Shown piece after piece: positions 1 through 62,096 of a stretch of DNA of 64,000 bases. The stretch covers positions 8,990,001 to 9,054,000 of the forward strand of contig OX597834.1 in NCBI GenBank assembly GCA_951406725.2, in the 5' to 3' direction. The position numbers and the translations under genes are program-made. Numbering within the stretch: the first letter of the stretch is position 1; every line of letters begins with the position of its first letter. The DNA is from Octopus vulgaris. Lineage: Eukaryota. Below the pieces are notes generated by a model, which made no database searches, was not told the DNA's origin, and saw nothing but the letters and a program-made list of their open reading frames with translations.

Positions 1-243
1 TTTGTCGAAGTGAAACAATTTGGGATTTTGTGATGTCGATTGTAGTGATTAAGAAGAGAATGAGTATTTTCATAAAGACTTAATAGGTCTCATGTGGTTG
101 GTTTGGGTGGAAGGTTTTTTTTAATTTTCAAATGCGGGACGTACGTACACACGCATGCACGCACATACACCCGCACAAAAAAAGAACAGACACAAATATA
201 GAGAGACAGATGGATTTAAGATTTCACAATCATACTAGCATAT

Positions 244-280
244 AGGCGTAGGAGTGGCTGTGTGGTAAATATATTGCTTA
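244..280 (+). mobile_element. 5' fragment of CORE-type tRNA-derived SINE
   Basis: aggcgtaggagtggctgtgtggtaa matches the 5' end of the full copies at 29010 and 58543; truncated after ttgcttac. Confidence 0.6.
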
Positions 281-1060
281 CTTCCGGTTACCCAGAATGC
301 AATACTACTTGGTCTGGACTGTTTCGGTGACAAGATGTGAGTTTTTTTTTTTTGGCTCCGTGAGTAGAAAAAAGAACAAAAAGAAAAATTGTCAATTATG
401 GCTCGCTATAGCGAGCAAAATAGTGGGTTCTCATCACCTTAACGGTGAATTGAGAATTTCTGCTTAAAAATTCTTTTTGTAAATTCTAGTGCGCGTATGT
501 CGCCAGTAAAAGTACACTTTTTCCGAACTGGAGTACTTCAAGAATAAGCCATTTGGATTACCTCTTTGGAGTATAATACAAAGGATTCCCTGTCTTTGCT
601 ATTTGTGAGGTTTTTCTTTTACTTTTCCCTTCTATTTTTTCTTTCTTTCTAAATTTTGTTTCATTCTTTTCATTACTTTAATTTCAGTTTCCTCCTCTTT
701 TATTTTGTTTTATTTTTATTCGGTTTGTGTTTTTGGCGGACTGTCTTTTGTACTACTTTTGAACTGTTTTTTGACATGACAGAGAAGGAACTTAAAAAGA
801 AAACCTCTGTCTTAGAGTGGGAAATTAACCCGCCTAAACAGTGGTTAAAAGATATGTAGGAGAAGACGGTGGTGCTTAGAACTTATTCTGAACTTCTTAA
901 TTCCACCACCGTCTTCCCAAAACAAGTTATAAAAAATGAACTTAAAGACTATTGTCCTCTTTAAAATATATATCCCGTGGTGTCAAAGTCCATAGTGCGT
1001 AGTACATACGAGGTTAAAAATGAAAAATATTTTCTAAGCAATGTCAGAGTCTCTATTTGC
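281..1060 (+). mobile_element. Possible 5' UTR plus decayed ORF1 start of an L1/Tx1-like LINE
   Basis: Interrupts the SINE head; the frame from 777 reads MTEKELKKK...DM*EKTVVLRTYSELLNSTTVFPKQVIKNEL with in-frame stops; family resemblance by eye only. Confidence 0.25.
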
Positions 1061-1784
1061 TGTCCGGCAATCTTTATTCGGATGTATTTTGCGCGAAAAT
1101 ACCTTAAGCTAAGCCTGAAAGCAATGAAGTTATAAAAGAATCATCTATAACTTGCAATTAGCAAAATTTATTAAACGTTATTACTGTTATTTCTTTATTG
1201 TCTGCAAACAAAATGCACAAAAAGCTACACGTTTGCATTACGTTATATATGCAATAATAATAAAGGACGTTGCCGTATACAGTTTTTGGTACTTGTCAAT
1301 TGTCGTGGTCCCGGTTTTGCACACGCGAATTCGCGCGCGCGCGCGCGCCAGACGTAGGTACTCGATACTCGAGATCCTACGAGGTGACTTGCGCACGCGC
1401 AGTGCAGAATTCGCGCGTGCGCGTTAAACCCCCCCCCTCCTAAAAAAAAAAGGTGTTGGATTTCACTAAAAATATATATGTGTGTGTGTGTATATATAAC
1501 ATTTTCAATTTTACACAAAAAAATTACATAGTCGCTTTCCTCGCGGATTTACAGAGAAATGAATTAATTACTATTTTACAGAATAAAATTAATGAATTAA
1601 TTATATAAATTAAATAATTCTTGAAAATTAATTAATATTAATAATATTTTTTGAACAAAGTAAATAATTTATAAAACTTGGTTAATAACTTTTTTTACAC
1701 AAACGCGAACGTATATAATTTGTGAAACTTTTTTTTTTTTTACAGACGTATATAATTTGGTAAACTTAATGAATTAATTTCTTC

Positions 1785-2208
1785 TCATCATCATCATCGT
1801 TTAACGTCCGTTCTCCATGCCAGCATGGGTTGGACGGTTCGACCGGGGATCTGGGAAGCCAGAAGGCTGCACCAGACTCCAGTCTTATCTGGCAATGTTT
1901 CTACAGCTGGATGCCCTTCCTAACGCCAACCACTCCGAGAGTGTAGTGGGTGCTTTTTACATGCCACCCGCACAGGTGCCAGGCGAGGCTGGCAACGGCC
2001 ACGGTCGGATTGGTGCCAGTCGAGGCGGCTCTGGCATCGGCCACGATTCGGATAGTGCTTTTTACGTACCACCAGTCCAGGGGTCCTGGCATTTGCCGGG
2101 TGCCACACTTGCCCCAACATGTCTTCGCAAGCAAAGGGGGTTGGCATGGGTGCCTGTCGTGGGATGAGGTTCGATATCAACTTCGCTTGCCTCAACAGGT
2201 CTTTGTGT
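1785..2208 (-). mobile_element. RTE-related non-autonomous retroposon, 5'-truncated, in the left arm
   Basis: On the minus strand it ends ...ccaacccatgctggcatggagaacggacgttaaac(gat)n and contains ggttggcgttaggaagggcatccagc; a GC-rich island in an AT-rich arm. Confidence 0.7.
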
Positions 2209-2378
2209 ATAAATGTATAAATTTTTCGCACTAAATTCTTTCCGTAGAATTTATAAAAAAACGCGCAAAATTATTCCGTAGACTTTATCAAATTAAAAAA
2301 CGCAAAATTAATATATTTTTTGAAATTGCAAATTATTTAGAATATAAAACAAATTAAGTTAAATTTTAAAAATAAATG

Positions 2379-2507
2379 TCATATACTTATACTCTGTAAG
2401 GTGCTGTGTTCACACTTCAATTTACTATTTTCTAGAAATGTTGCTTTTCTAATTGAAACAATTTTTCTCAATCTCCATTTAAAAGTCCATAATGCCTCTT
2501 GAGCCAT
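2379..2507 (-). pseudogene. Merlin (IS1595/ISXO2-like) transposase fragment, left-arm copy
   Basis: Mirror image of 2987-3115. Confidence 0.6.
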
Positions 2508-2784
2508 ATCAAAATGAACAACTTTGAATTACGTGGTGGTGGTGGTGTGAGGTTCTAATTTTTTTTTCTGATCTCTCTTTGCCCCCTCTTTATCTCAGTT
2601 GTTCATTCAGCTAATATTTAGAAAAATTTTCGCGCCCAATTTTTGTTGTCGCGGGAAAAGATGAACGATTTAAAATAAATATATCTTAATTGTAGTGTGA
2701 GAAAGTATATATATTCTGATGACAAAATATATTATCTTTCAAAAACATCCCAAATTTATAGACTATATCGTGTAGGTTTAAGAA

Positions 2785-2833
<49 letters not shown>

Positions 2834-2986
2834 TATAGATATATATATACATATATAGTAGAGAATGAAACATCTTTCATCTGTCTCCCCACCACACCTC
2901 CATCTAGGGGGGGCAAAGAGAGATCATAAAAAAAATTAGAACCTCACACCACCACCACCACGTAATTCAAAGTTGTTCATTTTGAT

Positions 2987-3115
2987 ATGGCTCAAGAGGC
3001 ATTATGGACTTTTAAATGGAGATTGAGAAAAATTGTTTCAATTAGAAAAGCAACATTTCTAGAAAATAGTAAATTGAAGTGTGAACACAGCACCTTACAG
3101 AGTATAAGTATATGA
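2987..3115 (+). pseudogene. Merlin (IS1595/ISXO2-like) transposase fragment, right-arm copy
   Basis: 42-aa ORF MAQEALWTFKWRLRKIVSIRKATFLENSKLKCEHSTLQSISI; WR..K.VSIRK.TF.ENSKL resembles the SIR-x-GT-F-FE-x-SKL motif that follows the N-terminal Zn ribbon of Merlin transposases; DDE domain absent. Confidence 0.6.
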
Positions 3116-3285
3116 CATTTATTTTTAAAATTTAACTTAATTTGTTTTATATTCTAAATAATTTGCAATTTCAAAAAATATATTAATTTTGCGTTTTTTA
3201 ATTTGATAAAGTCTACGGAATAATTTTGCGCGTTTTTTTATAAATTCTACGGAAAGAATTTAGTGCGAAAAATTTATACATTTAT

Positions 3286-3709
3286 ACACAAAGACCTGTT
3301 GAGGCAAGCGAAGTTGATATCGAACCTCATCCCACGACAGGCACCCATGCCAACCCCCTTTGCTTGCGAAGACATGTTGGGGCAAGTGTGGCACCCGGCA
3401 AATGCCAGGACCCCTGGACTGGTGGTACGTAAAAAGCACTATCCGAATCGTGGCCGATGCCAGAGCCGCCTCGACTGGCACCAATCCGACCGTGGCCGTT
3501 GCCAGCCTCGCCTGGCACCTGTGCGGGTGGCATGTAAAAAGCACCCACTACACTCTCGGAGTGGTTGGCGTTAGGAAGGGCATCCAGCTGTAGAAACATT
3601 GCCAGATAAGACTGGAGTCTGGTGCAGCCTTCTGGCTTCCCAGATCCCCGGTCGAACCGTCCAACCCATGCTGGCATGGAGAACGGACGTTAAACGATGA
3701 TGATGATGA
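3286..3709 (+). mobile_element. RTE-related retroposon, mirror copy in the right arm
   Basis: Reverse complement of 1785-2208, with a (GAT)n tail. Confidence 0.7.
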
Positions 3710-4517
3710 GAAGAAATTAATTCATTAAGTTTACCAAATTATATACGTCTGTAAAAAAAAAAAAAGTTTCACAAATTATATACGTTCGCGTTTGTGTAAA
3801 AAAAGTTATTAACCAAGTTTTATAAATTATTTACTTTGTTCAAAAAATATTATTAATATTAATTAATTTTCGAGAATTATTTAATTTATATAATTAATTC
3901 ATTAATTTTATTCTGTAAAATAGTAATTAATTCATTTCTCTGTAAATCCGCGAGGAAAGCGACTATGTAATTTTTTTGTGTAAAATTGAAAATGTTATAT
4001 ATACACACACACACATATATATTTTTAGTGAAATCCAACACCTTTTTTTTTAGGAGGGGGGGGGGGTTTAACGCGCACGCGCGAATTCTGCACTGCGCGT
4101 GCGCAAGTCACCTCGTAGGATCTCGAGTATCGAGTACCTACGTCTGGCGCGCGCGCGCGCGCGAATTCGCGTGTGCAAAACCGGGACCACGACAATTGAC
4201 AAGTACCCAGTTTTTCAAAGCAAGGACCTTATATACACCTCCTTGACTCAAGTTAGAGAAGGGGTGCGTATTATACAGAAGGTTTATGTTTTTCAGAGGT
4301 ACAGCCTCCTAAAAATCCCCTGCGTATTATACTCAAGGGTGGACTATACTCGAATATTTACGGAAGTTAGAAATACCTGTCTTTTTATTCTGCAAACACA
4401 CGGATTTTTAAAAACTTAAAGCACAAGATGGACAATATATATTTTGATACACTATTTGCAAAATTCCAAGTGAGGTCGTCGAGGTATCGAATTCATTCAT
4501 TATGAAATGATCACTCA

Positions 4518-4735
4518 AGGCGGCGAGGTGTTAGAATCGTTAGCTCACTGCACGAAATGCTTAGCGGTATTTCGCCCGTCGCTACAGTCCGAGTTCAAAT
4601 CCTGCCGAGGTCGACCTTGCCATTCATCATTTTGGGGTCGATAAATTAAGTAGTTGTGAAATTCTGGTGTCGATGGAATCGATTTAACCCCCACAATAGA
4701 TTTCATGTCTTGTGCCTTGTAGAAAAGGATTATTA
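4518..4735 (+). mobile_element. tRNA-derived SINE with a Meta-domain-like centre (family B)
   Basis: ggcggcgagg..gaatcgttagc A-box, gagttcaaatcc B-box, ggggtcgataaattaagta central block. Confidence 0.75.
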
Positions 4736-4779
4736 AATAACTACTTACTTCACTTGAATCACATCTAACTTGTGCTAAA

Positions 4780-5389
4780 GAATTTCAACAACGGCTGCGG
4801 CCCTAAGTTTTTACAAACTTAGTCTAACATGTAAACCGAATAGGAAATACGTTACTGAGTAGTAAGATGTAGTCAAACAGAATTCTGAGCTTATCATGGA
4901 GTTGATGTTTTATTATAAAGTTTAAAGAATGAGTAAATACTTTTCGCTCAACTGAATAAGAGTAGTAACCAAGATATCATCGAATCACAGACAACCACGT
5001 AACACTTTAATATACTAAATATAGAAGTAAGAATTAACCTAAGTTCATTGATACACATTGCCTGGAACAAAGTGTTGATGGTTATGGCTTAAATGTTTTT
5101 ATCACCGTTTCGCTTAATTTGGCTATTTTTGCTAGATCTTATGTTACATAATTTACAGTAATTCTCTGAAGAAATATCAATATCTCAGTACTTTTGTATT
5201 TCTTATTAGTAAAACGAGATTGCAAGATCTAAGTAGGTACGTTACAACAGACATGCAACACTTTTCATTCGTTAGGAATGATTGTGATTTATTAGAGAAT
5301 ATTGTGTTTCTGAAATGGATTTTTGATTGGTTCCATTTTTGCTTCCAAATAATATCTCTGAAAGACTGAAAGATCAAATTTCTCATCAG

Positions 5390-5390
<1 letters not shown>
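4780..5390 (-). pseudogene. Highly decayed Gypsy-type reverse transcriptase remnant
   Basis: Minus-strand fragments in RT order across stops and frameshifts: CKL..*DLAK..QIK..AITINT, then KVLRGCL*FDDILVTT, then YSVTYF. Confidence 0.45.
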
Positions 5391-5443
<53 letters not shown>

Positions 5444-7039
5444 CAGGGTTTTTCTTAACTTTTCTTTTGCTTGTGAAAATATTTATCGACGATTTACGGA
5501 GAGGAATCGTACATTAGATGTAACTGATATATATATGAACAAAGTTGATGCGTGGTTCGTGAGGAGGTTTTAACTTGTGGAATTACATGCAATGAGTTCT
5601 GGCATAATCCAATTCATTCATATCACTGCCTTTAGAGTAATTACTGCACATACGACTCTCTAGCTGCCCTCCCTCTCTTTCATTCTTTCTCTTTCTCTCT
5701 CTCCTTTTAGATGGTCCCTTTAGAAATATTCTTAATGTAGCAAAAGCCAGTGAGTTCTCTTTTGTAGTGGTCGCAATACATAAGAGCAAGCAAATATATT
5801 TGAATTCTCTACAGACTGCCCTAAGGACTCTTTGAAGTATTTATTCCTTCACAAGAAATGTTCATTGTTAGAAGACTTTAAAAATAGATCTTCTGGATCA
5901 AAGTTGACCGACAACAAAATGAAAAGAAGCAGCAATACAGAACACGCATTTATGGCTAAATAAAAGTTGAAGATAAACTAAAATAATCATATTTAACGGG
6001 AACTGTAGGATGTAAATGATAGTATAAAGATGAACTCGTTTTTCTATCCGTACATGTTGCTTTTTTACTTGTTTGTGTCATATTTCGAAATAGGTTGTTT
6101 TGCCTGTCGTCTATAATGTATAATGTAGTATAATGTTTAAAAGACTATATAATGTACGCCATTTGGCTCATTTGGCAAAATTGTATCTTGTCCCTTATTT
6201 GTAGACCAAGTTTCAGGTGTGTCAACTTCCAAAAGCTAAACCCTTATAAAATAATTAGTGACTGTTCTATCCCCATTCCTTTTATTCAGGAGAATACAAG
6301 GCATGATTGGCTCCTGATAACCATTCATTTTTCACCACATAGTGTCACATAAGACAAACATTTGAAACTACCTCAATTTTGGTAAAAATGGACAACTATC
6401 ATACTACTTTTTGCAATCCTCCCCATCACTTTGAAAATACCTGCAACACACATTGAGGAATATTATACTGATGGCTTTAGCACTTCGAAATCGATTGATT
6501 CCTCCCAAACTCTGTAATTGCGGTGAAAAGTCTTTCTGTCACTCTCTCTTCCACTCACGCGCTATCCCATATGCATAAGAGATAAAAATACAGGTATGGC
6601 ATATATTCATTGAGGACACACCAATCTTTCCTACCACCATCAGGTAGGATGTTGGTAAAAGTATTAGTGGAGTTAGAGAGGAAGAACCGGGACTGTGACA
6701 TATGATATGTTATTCTCTAACAGGAAAAACTAGAATTAACAGTTGTTTTTTTTTCTATTCCTTAACTTCCCTTACACTTTTTATTTTTAAAGTTTTGTTT
6801 TCTGCTGACATGAGGTATTTTTTTTTTTCATTTCCATGACAATCGATAGAGCAGAGAAGAAAACTCTCCTGTTGTATTTAGTTACGTCTCTTTAAATTCT
6901 GACATGATAGATACTGGGGTCGATATTGCTTTTCATCTCTTGGCGTGGAAAATTACAGACCGAGACAATGAGAGGTTATTTTCAATCAGTTGTTATCTCG
7001 CAAATGATATGTGTAGAGATATATCTGTGTTATTCATCC

Positions 7040-13604: not shown

Positions 13605-16519
13605 CTTTGTATGTATGCAAATGTGTATGTATGTATGTATGTATGTATGTATGAATATATGTATATGTACGTATGGATATATATTTACACACATATTTAT
13701 TTACTACTACTTTTACTACTGTAAAATAATAATAATGATAATAATAATAATAATAGAAAGAGCTGAGACTCGTTAACCTATGCAGATCACCGAAGATATA
13801 CATCAGTTTATATATTAAGACAGAATATTTGTATTGAATACTACATAGCTTTCTATATATATATATATATGTATACGCATATACATACATATATATAAAT
13901 ACATATTAGTTTCTGTATTTGATAGGTTTAGTATGGATGTATGTGCCTGTATATCTGTGTGCATATGTAACGATTTTTATATAATGATATAACGTCACAC
14001 ACTCACAAATGCATGCACACACAAATGCACATACACAAAATTTGATGTATGTTTGTATGTATAAACGAAAGTGAAACCTCTGCATTTGTGATTTTCACCG
14101 TGTTAAGTGCGTTGTTTGCAACGTGACAACAAACTGCTCAAGACGCTCGTTATGCGTTTGACTTAGATTTAGTTTTTTTGTATGATATCTTGTAAATGTT
14201 GAATTTCCCTGCCACGCAGCTTTCTCTGGCCATTCACCAGTTTCACTGTGTTGCTTTAATTTCGTTCGGTTGTACATGAAGGATTGTCTTTTCTGCTTTT
14301 CCAGATGATTTTTTTTTTATATATAAATATCGATTGAATACCGAAAAGTTACTGGGTTTAGGGTTGTCGCGAAAGTCCTGCTTGGATGCCCAATGATCCG
14401 AGTTCTTTTATATGGTTTAAAAAGAAAATTGAATGACCGCTGCAATAAGTGTGAATCTGAGAGAGGTATATGTTGGATAAAATCATATCTTATCCTCCTT
14501 CATTTTCTTTTACACAAACCCATGAACTTTTCACTAACGCCTCGTATATTATAAAATTATTCAACTTACTGCAGTAGAGACTTGGCGGTTGGAATTTATG
14601 TTTACTGTTATCCTTAATTGATAGATTGAAATGCTTTTGAAGTATTCTGTGTTCAAGTGTACAATACCTCTTTGGCGGCACTGGCATCGTATGGCGCAGA
14701 AGGTGCCATATGCATTGTTCCTTACTTTCGGTAATCTTATAAAACACCTGCTTTGTGGACCATGTGATGCTGAACTTTTTATTTCATATTGCTGGATTTC
14801 ATCTTTACGTGGCCTCTTTCAAACGGGTGGGAAAAGCTATTTGTGGGTTGAATACGTACTGTCTCTATGCAGCTTCTCGTTCTAGCAAAAATGTTATCGA
14901 AATACCTTACTGCAGTACATATACAACCGTTAGCAACTGAAATGAATTATACTATTCTATTGAAGTAATAAATTATTAATTGTAAAGATACCTTATCTGC
15001 CTTCAAACAAGTTTCATACAGATAGAACATTTCCTTAGAAATGGCATACGCGTCTAATGCGTGATCAGACAGTGTAGTTAGCTAGATAACATTCTCTTAG
15101 GCAAGTTTATGATCACTCGTCAAGTGAAGCTCTGCTATCTGAAATGTTTCGTATATTTATTTGCACGGGGGGCATCAGTGTGTTTATGATGCATTAGTGT
15201 ATCATAAACACGCGTTCGAAGTCGAATATTCGTTCGCAATTAAATCACGGTTCCTCAAGCTATGTATACTTTTCCCAATTCATAGAAATAAGAGCGTGAT
15301 AATGTGTATGTGTGCGTATAGTAATATGACTGTGCAAGTGCGTGAAGAAAATTTCCACTTCGCATCGTGTGTTACAGCGTAGGTGTGTTCGTGTGTTTGC
15401 CTGTTGAAGAATGCTGGATTTCCTTAAAGAGAAATGTCAATATATTTTATATGAGCAACTGCATTAATAATAATAAAAAGCAATATGGTGGAAAGGAAAT
15501 TCTTGATGTGTTTCTCAAACCATAAATAATAATGTACATAACAATAATAATAATAAGACGAAGAAGAAGGGCAACGACAAGAGTATCAAGAACGATAACA
15601 ATACTAATAATAAAAAATAGTGATAATAATAATAAAAATAATAATAAGCATAAGACGAAGAAGAACAACAACAACAACAGCATCAAGAACAATAATAATA
15701 CTAATAATAAATAATAATAATGATAATAATAATAATGAAAATGGTAATATTAATTTTTCTTTATAATAATAATAACAACAACAACAAATACAAACATCTC
15801 ACAACTATGAAACAAAATTATGAAGGATTTGCATCTGCTTGCAAAATTTTCATCATTTATTGAGAAAATATCTCAGTATCTAAAATGTAACTTTAGATGT
15901 AACATACAGCTTCCGGTTCTCGTGTTTTGTTTCTTTATTTATTTTGCAAACACTTTTTTATGACTCGGATTCCGTAAGAGTGTTGTCAACAGATTTTCCG
16001 AATATAAAATGTATTCCGTATATTTTTTTTCTCTTATTCTTTCTTTATTTTTTCTTTATATTTTCCTATTGACGATACCTTTTTTTTATCTCGGTATTCA
16101 ATTTCTGGAGTTAAATACAACAACACCACCGCCACAACGGCGGTGACGTCAAAGACGATGACGGAATTAAAGTCGAAGATAACGACGACAGAGGAGGAGT
16201 TGAACGTCATGTTGATGATGATGATGATGATGATTTATACTTTGATAACGGTAGTTGATGATAATACTATAAATAGTCGTATTCACATTTTATTGTTATT
16301 AGCGTCGATTATCTTCCCCTGAATTTTCTATTATTTTATTATGCATGTTATATATATTTTAATTTCCTTGTTTCCTTGAAATCAAAGGACGCAAAATAGC
16401 ATAAAACTAGAAAAACAAAATGTCCATTTGTTTCTGCATTTCATGACGCGAAAATTTTCAAAAGATTTCGTGGATTGGAAACATAATTCATTATTGTTTT
16501 AGTTAATTTTTGTCATTTC

Positions 16520-19110
16520 GTCATATATATATACGCTTATATATATATATATATATGTATATATATGTATATGTATATATATGTATATGTATGTATATGT
16601 ATATATATGTATATGTATATGTATATATATGTATATGTATATGTATATATATGTATATGTATATATATGTATATGTATGTATATGTATATGTATGTATAT
16701 GTACGTATATGTATATGTATGTAGATGTATGTATATGTATGTATATATGTATGTATATATGTATGTATATATATATATGTATGTATATATATGTGTATAT
16801 GTATGTATATATATATATGTATGTATATATATGTGTATATGTATGTATATATATATATGTATGTATATATATGTGTATATGTATGTATATGTATATGTAT
16901 GTATATGTATATATGTATGTATATATGTATGTATATGTATGTATATGTATGTATGTATATGTATGTATGTATATGTATATATGTATATATGTATATATAT
17001 GTATGTATGTATATATGTATATATATGTATATATATATGTATATATATATGTATATATATATATATGTATGTATGTATGTATGCATATATATATGTATAT
17101 GTATGTATGTATGTATGCATATATATATGTATATGTATGTATGTATGTATGCATATATATATGTATATGTATGTATGTATGTATGCATATATATATGTAT
17201 ATGTATGTATGTATGTATGCATATATATATGTATATGTATGTATGTATGTATGCATATATATATGTATATGTATGTATGTATGTATGCATATATATATGT
17301 ATATGTATGTATGTATGTATGCATATATATATGTATATGTATGTATGTATGTATGCATATATATATGTATATGTATGTATGTATGTATGTATATATATAT
17401 GTATATGTATGTATGTATGTATGCATATATATATGTATATATATGTATGTATGCATATATATATGTATATATATGTATGTATGTATGCATATATATATGT
17501 ATATATATGTATGTATGTATGCATATATATATGTATATATATGTATGTATGTATGCATATATATATGTATATATATGTATGTATGTATGCATATATATAT
17601 GTATATATATGTATGTATGTATGCATATATATATGTATATATATGTATGTATGTATGCATATATATATGTATATATATGTATGTATGTATGCATATATAT
17701 ATGTATATATATGTATGTATGTATGCATATATATATGTATATATATGTATGTATGTATGCATATATATATGTATATATATGTATGTATGTATGCATATAT
17801 ATATGTATATATATGTATGTATGTATGCATATATATATGTATATATATGTATGTATGTATGCATATATATATGTATATATATGTATGTATGTATGCATAT
17901 ATATATGTATATATATGTATGTATGTATGCATATATATATGTATATATATGTATGTATGTATGCATATATATATGTATATATATGTATGTATGTATGCAT
18001 ATATATATGTATATATATGTATGTATGTATGCATATATATATGTATATATATGTATGTATGTATGCATATATATATGTATATATATGTATGTATGTATGC
18101 ATATATATATGTATATATATGTATGTATGTATGCATATATATATGTATATATATGTATGTATGTATGCATATATATATGTATATATATGTATGTATGTAT
18201 GCATATATATATGTATATATATGTATGTATGTATGCATATATATATGTATATATATGTATGTATGTATGCATATATATATGTATATATATGTATGTATGT
18301 ATGCATATATATATGTATATATATGTATGTATGTATGCATATATATATGTATATATATGTATGTATGTATGCATATATATATGTATATATATGTATGTAT
18401 GTATGCATATATATATGTATATATATGTATGTATGTATGCATATATATATGTATATATATGTATGTATGTATGCATATATATATGTATATATATGTATGT
18501 ATGTATGCATATATATATGTATATATATGTATGTATGTATGCATATATATATGTATATATATGTATGTATGTATGCATATATATATGTATATATATGTAT
18601 GTATGTATGCATATATATATGTATATATATGTATGTATGTATGCATATATATATGTATATATATGTATGTATGTATGCATATATATATGTATATATATGT
18701 ATGTATGTATGCATATATATATGTATATATATGTATGTATGTATGCATATATATATGTATATATATGTATGTATGTATGCATATATATATGTATATATAT
18801 GTATGTATGTATGCATATATATATGTATATATATGTATGTATGTATGCATATATATATGTATATATATGTATGTATGTATGCATATATATATGTATATAT
18901 ATGTATGTATGTATGCATATATATATGTATATATATGTATGTATGTATGCATATATATATGTATATATATGTATGTATGTATGCATATATATATGTATAT
19001 ATATGTATGTATGTATGCATATATATATGTATATATATGTATGTATGTATGCATATATATATGTATATATATATATATGAATGTATGTATATGTATATAT
19101 ATGTATATAT
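16520..19110. repeat. 2.6-kb TA/TATG tract containing a 34-bp minisatellite (17083-19060)
   Basis: The GC dinucleotide recurs every 34 bp; unit gcatatatatatgtatatatatgtatgtatgtat. Confidence 0.95.
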
Positions 19111-60766: not shown

Positions 60767-62096
60767 CCACAAGGGGCTAAACACAGAGGGGACAAACAAG
60801 GACAGACAAACGGATTAAGACGATTACATCTACCCCAGTGCGTAACTGGTACTTAATTTATCGACCCCCCGAAAGGATGAAAGGCAAGTCGACGTCGGCG
60901 GAATTTGAACTCAGAACGTAGCGGCAGGCAAAATTCCTATTTATTTACTACCCACAAGGGGCTAAACACAGAGGGGACAAACAAGGACAGACAAACGGAT
61001 TAAGACGATTACATCTACCCCAGTGCGTAACTGGTACTTAATTTATCGACCCCCCGAAAGGATGAAAGGCAAAGTCGACGGCGGCGGAATTTGAACTCAG
61101 AACGTAGCGGCAGGCAAAATTCCTATTTATTTACTACCCACAAGGGGCTAAACACGGAGAGGAAAACACGGACAGACAAACGGATTAAGTCGATTACATC
61201 GACCCCAGTGCGTAACTGGTACTTAATTTATCGACCCCCGAAAGGATGAAAGGCAAAGTCGTCGGCGGAATTTGAACTCAGAACGTAGCGGCAGGCAAAA
61301 TTCCTATTTATTTACTACCCACAAGGGGCTAAACACGGAGAGGACAAACACGGACAGACAAACGGATTAAGTCGATTACATCGACCCCAGTGCGTAACTG
61401 GTACTTAATTTATCGACCCCCCGAAAGGATGAAAGGCAAAGTCGACGTCGGCGGAATTTGAACTCAGAACGTAGCGGCAGGCAAAATTCCTATTTATTTA
61501 CTACCCACAAGGGGCTAAACACGGAGAGGACAAACACGGAGAGACAAACGGATTAAGACGATTACATCGACCCCAGTGCGTAACTGGTACTTAATTTATC
61601 GACCCCCGAAAGGATGAAAGGCAAAGTCGACGTCGGCGGAATTTGAACTCAGAACGTAGCGGCAGGCAATATTCCTATTTATTTACTACCCACAAGGGGC
61701 TAAACACGGAGAGGACAAACACGGACAGACAAACGGATTAAGACGATTACATCGACTACAGTGCGTAACTGGTACTTAATTGAATCGACCCCCGAAAGGA
61801 TGAAAGGCAAAGTCGACGTCGGCGGAATTTGTACTCAGAACGTAGCGGCAGGCAAAATTCCTATTTATTTACTACCCACAAGGGGCTAAACACGGAGAGG
61901 ACAAACACGGACAGACAAACGACGGATTAAGTCGATTACATCGACTACAGTGCGTAACTGGTACTTATTGAATCGACCCTGAAAGGATGAAAGGCAAAGT
62001 CGACCTCGGCGGAATTTGTACTCAGAACGTAACGACAGACGAAATACGGCTATGTATTTCGCCCGGTGTGCGAAGGTTTCTGCCAGCTCACCACCA
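60767..62096 (-). repeat. Tandem array of 7 SINE-derived units (181-186 bp), ending in one complete family-B SINE
   Basis: ccacaagggg at 60767, 60952, 61138, 61319, 61505, 61690 and 61876; only the last unit has the A-box head (to 62096). Confidence 0.95.

Follow-up and report, generated by a model that had tools for sequence, protein, structure and literature searches.

Near the start of the 64-kb stretch of octopus DNA analysed here (the window), a 2.9-kb palindrome interrupts an older repeat (Table 1). It consists of two long terminal inverted repeats (TIRs), hereafter the arms, on either side of a short spacer, and the arms make up 89% of its length. By blast the left and right arms are 99.46% identical over 1304 columns. 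They are separated by six events: three homopolymer lengths (the C-run at 1428, by 2 nt, the A-run at 1442 and the T-run at 2559) and three substitutions (T/C at 1622, C/A at 2568 and T/C at 2587). The initial annotation had likewise seen few differences, the one at 1622 among them, and its arms of 1299 bp and spacer of 322 bp are obtained by cutting at the last mismatch; the blast limits are used in Table 1.

The GGTAC and GTACC ends and the perfect 8-bp target site duplication (TSD) that it described are also in place, with CAGTTTTT on each side. Beyond the GG/CC ends mirror symmetry is lost (4 of 20 positions match). Local composition predicts that two given places share the same 8-mer by chance in ~3e-5 of cases; the empirical figure for this microsatellite-rich window is 7e-4. 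Of the 15 longest inverted repeats listed, only the one formed by the arms exceeds 82% identity; in the whole window the 17-bp end of the element occurs only twice, with up to three mismatches allowed.

Table 1. Features of the palindromic element and of the repeat that it interrupts (window coordinates)
Feature	Position	Strand	Remarks
Older high-copy host repeat, left part	980..1279	.	left limit approximate
Left TSD copy, CAGTTTTT	1280..1287	+	8 bp; single copy in paralogous empty sites
Whole element	1288-4207		2920 bp; ends GGTAC...GTACC
Left arm (long TIR)	1288..2589	+	1302 bp; starts GGTACTTGTCA
Terminal 11 bp	1288..1298	+	10/11 identical to the Euglena Merlin F2 terminus
Imperfect internal palindrome	1313..1432	.	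centre 1361-1373; GC-rich subterminal block; mirrored in right arm
Retroposon fragment with (GAT)n tail	1787..2205	-	limits approximate; from contig depth and GC
Two copies of a 34-bp unit	2240..2310	+	only minisatellite-type repeat of the arm
Spacer	2590..2905	.	316 bp; non-coding; between the two arms
Piece of another repeat in spacer	about 2657-2773		contigs match at about 90%
(TA)n in spacer	2785-2857
Right arm (long TIR)	2906..4207	-	1302 bp
Mirror copy of retroposon fragment	3289..3707	+	identical to the left one
Right TSD copy, CAGTTTTT	4208..4215	+	8 bp
Older host repeat, right part	4216..4362	.	ends TTTACGG; continuous with left part via contigs

As for the interior of the arms, the internal palindrome spans 120 bp (44 of 65 columns), and the GC-rich tip in which it lies (1288-1460) folds with a z-score of -3.4 (0 of 200 shuffles). 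AT-rich DNA separates this tip from the retroposon fragment. Tandem repetition is confined to the two 34-bp units and microsatellites, and there is no tandem-repeat domain. Contigs that match the spacer at 2657-2773 run on into other sequence. This part of the spacer is a fragment of another repeat, possibly from the interior of a parent element.

Public runs were brought in to examine the target site. Part of 700-2905 is contained in 19 of the 24 listed, the best holding 0.61 of its words, and matching to 700-2780 covers four of the 24: contig sets X1 and X2 and raw-read runs X20 and X21. Behind position 1286, 27 contigs of X1 and 32 of X2 leave the window, and in their loose ends 26 of 30 letters agree with the right flank and 10 of 30 with the start of the element. 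In paralogous copies of the host repeat, then, a single 8-mer leads directly on to the right-flank sequence, so that the two copies here are a true target duplication, as had been proposed. The last letter of the 8-mer is A in the loose-end consensus but T in both window copies; it was thus this locus's own variant that was duplicated.

The host repeat, whose TTTACGG end we take to be Tc2/pogo-like, shows 11 listed differences from its relatives between 1002 and 1251 and 4 in 30 letters of the right flank. Set against the three substitutions between the arms, this divergence makes the palindrome a young element in an older one, in agreement with the earlier reading.

Other repeats are layered around it. 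A SINE head at 240-281, with four more copies in the window, opens a nested succession over 240-980: the head is followed by a moderately repeated stretch and then by the host repeat. A broken frame that starts near 776 within that stretch is presumably the 5' part of a LINE. Farther along, more than 2 kb of a long TA/TG-rich array (about 16500-19110) seems to repeat every 34 bp. At 60767-62059, units of about 185 bp that are 92-96% alike follow one another head to tail and match a SINE-like piece at about 4520-4690 at 74-78%; this array is a SINE-derived young minisatellite.

The mirrored retroposon and copying between the arms

Each arm contains a piece that the initial annotation did not mention. 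Its GC content is 57%, against 20-27% around it, and its contig coverage is 126 and 554 times that of the inner arm in the two contig sets. It is a fragment of a very abundant octopus retroposon, presumably a SINE or the 3' end of an RTE-type element, and the contigs list several sites at which it departs from most of its family. Around it there is no TSD of at least 6 bp, and the window contains no copy beyond those in the arms. Between the arms the piece has no differences over 416 bp (435 of 435 positions identical in the alignment).

How did the same fragment come to lie in both arms? It is not credible that the retroposon inserted twice, independently, at mirror-image positions; hence one arm was copied onto the other recently, after the retroposon had inserted. 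Three of the six differences between the arms fall within their last 31 bp (p about 3e-4, for a stretch chosen post hoc), a clustering that would follow if the copying began at an older inner junction or grew weaker towards it. At 0.0036 per My, the rate quoted in PMC13282606, one to three substitutions place the time when the arms were last alike at roughly 0.1-0.3 My (95% range up to 0.9). This age dates the copying, and the date of insertion is not necessarily the same.

Superfamily and mobility of the element

Merlin transposons are described as having GG ends and TSDs of 8-9 bp (PMC8101967); here the TIRs start with 5'-GG and 8 bp are duplicated. The supplement of the same paper gives a closer reference, Euglena Merlin F2, with a DDE transposase, 8-bp TSDs and the start GGTACTTGTCT. 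Although this reference comes from a protist, the octopus element agrees with it at 10 of 11 positions and in TSD length, an agreement with a rough chance of about 6e-4 over 20 reference ends. A Repbase rule, worded for two non-autonomous elements, asks for equal TSD length and at most one mismatch in positions 1-11 (PMC4455052); applied to the F2 comparison, it places the element in Merlin. The earlier assignment to this superfamily, as a non-autonomous member, is thus supported by the GG ends, the terminal match and the TSD length. GGNRM is a label for Merlin termini; the literature search found no paper that pairs the two.

Coding capacity is lacking. The frames submitted to Pfam were 126 of the 197 non-simple frames of at least 60 aa and 10 shorter ones near the element; in these 136 window frames, those of the left arm and spacer included, no family scored above cut-off, and eight frames gave weak matches below it. 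The longest stop-free frame of the element, 120 aa, lies inside the retroposon piece. It had no usable match in the ESM Atlas and six protein matches among 14 candidates; five of the six are named as Octopus hypothetical proteins, which makes the repeat, and by extension the window, octopus DNA. The frame was dismissed as a gene: it is a spurious ORF in a repeat, and its matches are read likewise.

Several other classifications were set aside. An autonomous Merlin would need the DDE_Tnp_IS1595 transposase, which is absent, given the longest frame of 120 aa and the Pfam result. Galileo/P ends start with CA, and membership there is contradicted by the GG ends and by a TSD of 8 bp rather than the 7 bp of Galileo. 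MITEs are usually under 600 bp (PMC3573991), compared with 2920 bp here. On 1-6000 Rfam gave one chance match, which lies outside the element, and the exact terminal patterns had no match in either metagenome or viral contigs.

The reading that we prefer, with a probability of about 0.6, is that of a non-autonomous Merlin DNA transposon cut and pasted whole, at 2.9 kb, by a putative Merlin transposase acting in trans. The initial annotation had regarded the TSD as showing that the entire palindrome was inserted. It does establish that the outer ends were inserted here, but says nothing about the length that the arms had at that time: TIRs can also grow in place, as proposed for Galileo, where one TIR is extended by repair from the other (PMC3573991), so the TSD cannot settle whether the palindrome moved as a unit.

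Could the giant palindrome, then, have arisen in place? A shorter or asymmetric non-autonomous Merlin would have inserted, the arm with its retroposon would have been copied later at this locus only, and the 2.9-kb form would never have transposed. We consider this unlikely, although the TSD dates the outer ends only and in-place extension has its precedent in Galileo. Two of the joints listed for X2 also point in this direction. One runs from 1372 to 1690 with 19 other letters between (depth 1645); the other, in one contig, runs from 1716 to 2260 (depth 1948), skipping 543 bp with the retroposon. These joints, which are unphased, may come from a shorter, retroposon-free sibling. Since the first joint coincides with the middle of the small internal palindrome, the right half of the latter may derive from an earlier short foldback event.

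Against an origin in place, all non-retroposon parts of the arm and the first spacer bin are deeply covered in the contig sets, which bear two organism labels. Summed depth is at least 12,000 in both sets over the non-retroposon parts of the outer arm, 1400-1540 included, and 33,000 and 3,900 in the first spacer bin; the ratio of inner arm to that bin is 1.6 and 3.9. One 108-bp arm contig with a single difference reaches a depth of 4673, or 66-106 times the shallowest listed contigs of its run (44-70). Contig depth is no copy number, and the deep coverage of arm and spacer is taken only as a sign of a multi-copy family. Against the preferred reading, the matches and rows listed for X1 and X2 include no contig that spans 700-2780 and no second full copy with another TSD or insertion site, and none of the 19 loose ends listed lies at 1288.

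In the raw-read runs X20 and X21, 17 and 36 reads matched, none on the element outside the retroposon piece. The host repeat, too, is almost absent from both runs, which probably stem from another genome and were treated as uninformative. They bear the species label of the best-matching run, yet have almost no reads even on very abundant repeats, and the label or filter calls for caution.

The published inventories offer a further comparison. Among molluscs, Merlin is reported almost only from cephalopods (PMC10294476). In Octopus the superfamily is abundant: O. bimaculoides has 191 Merlin sequences, and the octopus Merlin proteins are listed without their ends (PMC8101967). For O. vulgaris, 18 Merlin families covering 2.19 Mb are given, of which two families are recently active, with 11 insertions and 28,998 bp (PMC13282606). 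These figures correspond to a mean of about 2.6 kb per recently active insertion; such a mean would fit a family of this size, a suggestive agreement that counts against an origin in place. The full palindrome is, on the whole, likely to move as a unit.

Less probable still is that the palindrome is a Mutator/foldback element mobilised by a MULE transposase. MULE ends are G-rich, and the long TIRs and 8-10-bp TSDs of such foldbacks are both matched here. Mutator stays a rival since most foldback elements resemble it and since its TSDs can be 8 bp long (8-10 bp in Tetris, PMC4079207; 4-10 bp in IS256/MuDR, PMC10045372); moreover, 21 recently active Mutator families are given for O. vulgaris (PMC13282606). 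What speaks for Merlin instead is the 10/11 terminal identity with a transposase-bearing member, in a comparison against Merlin reference ends only, and arms free of a tandem-repeat domain beyond the two 34-bp units.

Two independent truncated copies of a smaller element, facing each other across 316 bp of host DNA and moved once as a macro-transposon, would account for a spacer with a piece of another repeat and a microsatellite, but we give this very little credence, since the arms show neither inner termini nor inner TSDs and stop at the same base, and since coverage is deep in the first spacer bin as well. An assembly artefact, either a foldback chimera or a collapsed interior, is just as improbable: the arms are 99.5% alike, three of the six differences between them concern homopolymer length, and the structure is not spanned by any read or contig among those examined in the public runs, yet a chimera would have mirrored the flank, whereas symmetry stops at GG/CC, the right flank continues the host repeat collinearly, and the TSD, the unique spacer and the three substitutions would be left unaccounted for. 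The structure is thus real and not a simple assembly foldback.

Known relatives, proposed history and significance

How new is such an element? The initial annotation had placed described Merlin TIRs in the range of tens to a few hundred bp, and the main text of PMC8101967 does quote 24-462 bp. The Repbase Merlin table in its supplement, however, gives a TIR size of 1000 for Merlin-1_DR and for the non-autonomous Merlin-N5_DR. Long-armed non-autonomous Merlins are therefore already known, and the premise of novelty fails. For the octopus family itself the literature searched held no description, but Repbase, Dfam or the Zenodo library of PMC13282606 may already contain it.

A close counterpart is Merlin-N5_DR of zebrafish, known from its table row, which shares the non-autonomous state and the long TIRs. 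Its mirrored arrays at 531-1114 and 3193-3775 imply an element of about 4.3 kb with arms of at least 1.1 kb, so that the arms need cover about half of it. Judged by this description, it is set apart by 113-bp tandem arrays in its arms, while the octopus element has arms of 89% without such arrays and a mirrored retroposon piece. Merlin-1_DR, also of zebrafish, has 1000-bp TIRs but is about 10 kb long and has a transposase domain. The Euglena gracilis Merlins share 8-bp TSDs and the ends, GGTACTTGTC in F2 (10/11) and GGTACTTGTT in F1 (9/11) (PMC8101967); unlike the octopus element, they encode a DDE transposase, have short TIRs and reside in a protist.

Outside Merlin, the Drosophila elements Galileo 2T and 2RT are non-autonomous and consist almost only of TIRs of up to 1260 bp in a total of 1.7-2.2 kb, with TIR extension by copying from the other TIR (PMC3573991). 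They differ in belonging to the P superfamily, in their 7-bp TSDs and in that extension recruits internal sequence of the element, whereas here a foreign retroposon was mirrored. The Mutator-type foldbacks Tetris and FB have long TIRs, no autonomy and 8-10-bp TSDs, as here (PMC4079207), but their TIRs are modular with internal tandem repeats, while the termini of the octopus element match Merlin. The octopus element stands out by the share of its length that the arms take up (89%) and by the mirrored retroposon.

From these data we infer the following history. In an ancestor with shorter arms, one arm would have acquired the retroposon piece. That arm may then have served as template for the repair of a break or stalled fork in its partner, through intra-element conversion or a template switch; the sequence between the tip and about 2558 would thereby have been mirrored, and the last 31 bp homogenised to a lesser degree. 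The long-armed form would have remained mobilisable, as only the tips are needed, and a Merlin (IS1595-type DDE) transposase supplied in trans would have cut and pasted the 2.9-kb unit, one copy landing at this locus. The arms would last have been made alike within the interval estimated above. Directly supported in this sequence are the 8-bp staggered insertion into an older repeat, the Merlin-type ends, the lack of coding capacity and the identity of the retroposon in both arms.

A bolder picture can be drawn, which we hold to be quite doubtful: in an active octopus Merlin family, numbering tens to hundreds of copies, each arm would time and again be overwritten from the other, so that any insertion into one of them is mirrored. 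A piece of one of the most abundant retroposons of the genome would thereby have been captured in a mobile, near-perfect 1.3-kb hairpin that, when transcribed, would yield long dsRNA for A-to-I editing and for small-RNA silencing of the retroposon in trans.

For the cephalopods, the element adds one more family to the repeat libraries. For Merlin, it is a clean example of how a foldback form can evolve in this superfamily, as in P/Galileo and Mutator. As a natural marker, the mirrored retroposon puts two events in order, insertion and then arm-to-arm copying, and it makes TIR homogenisation directly testable across copies. Lastly, inversions and long dsRNA could plausibly arise from near-perfect inverted repeats of 1.3 kb, and this in a lineage noted for extensive RNA editing.
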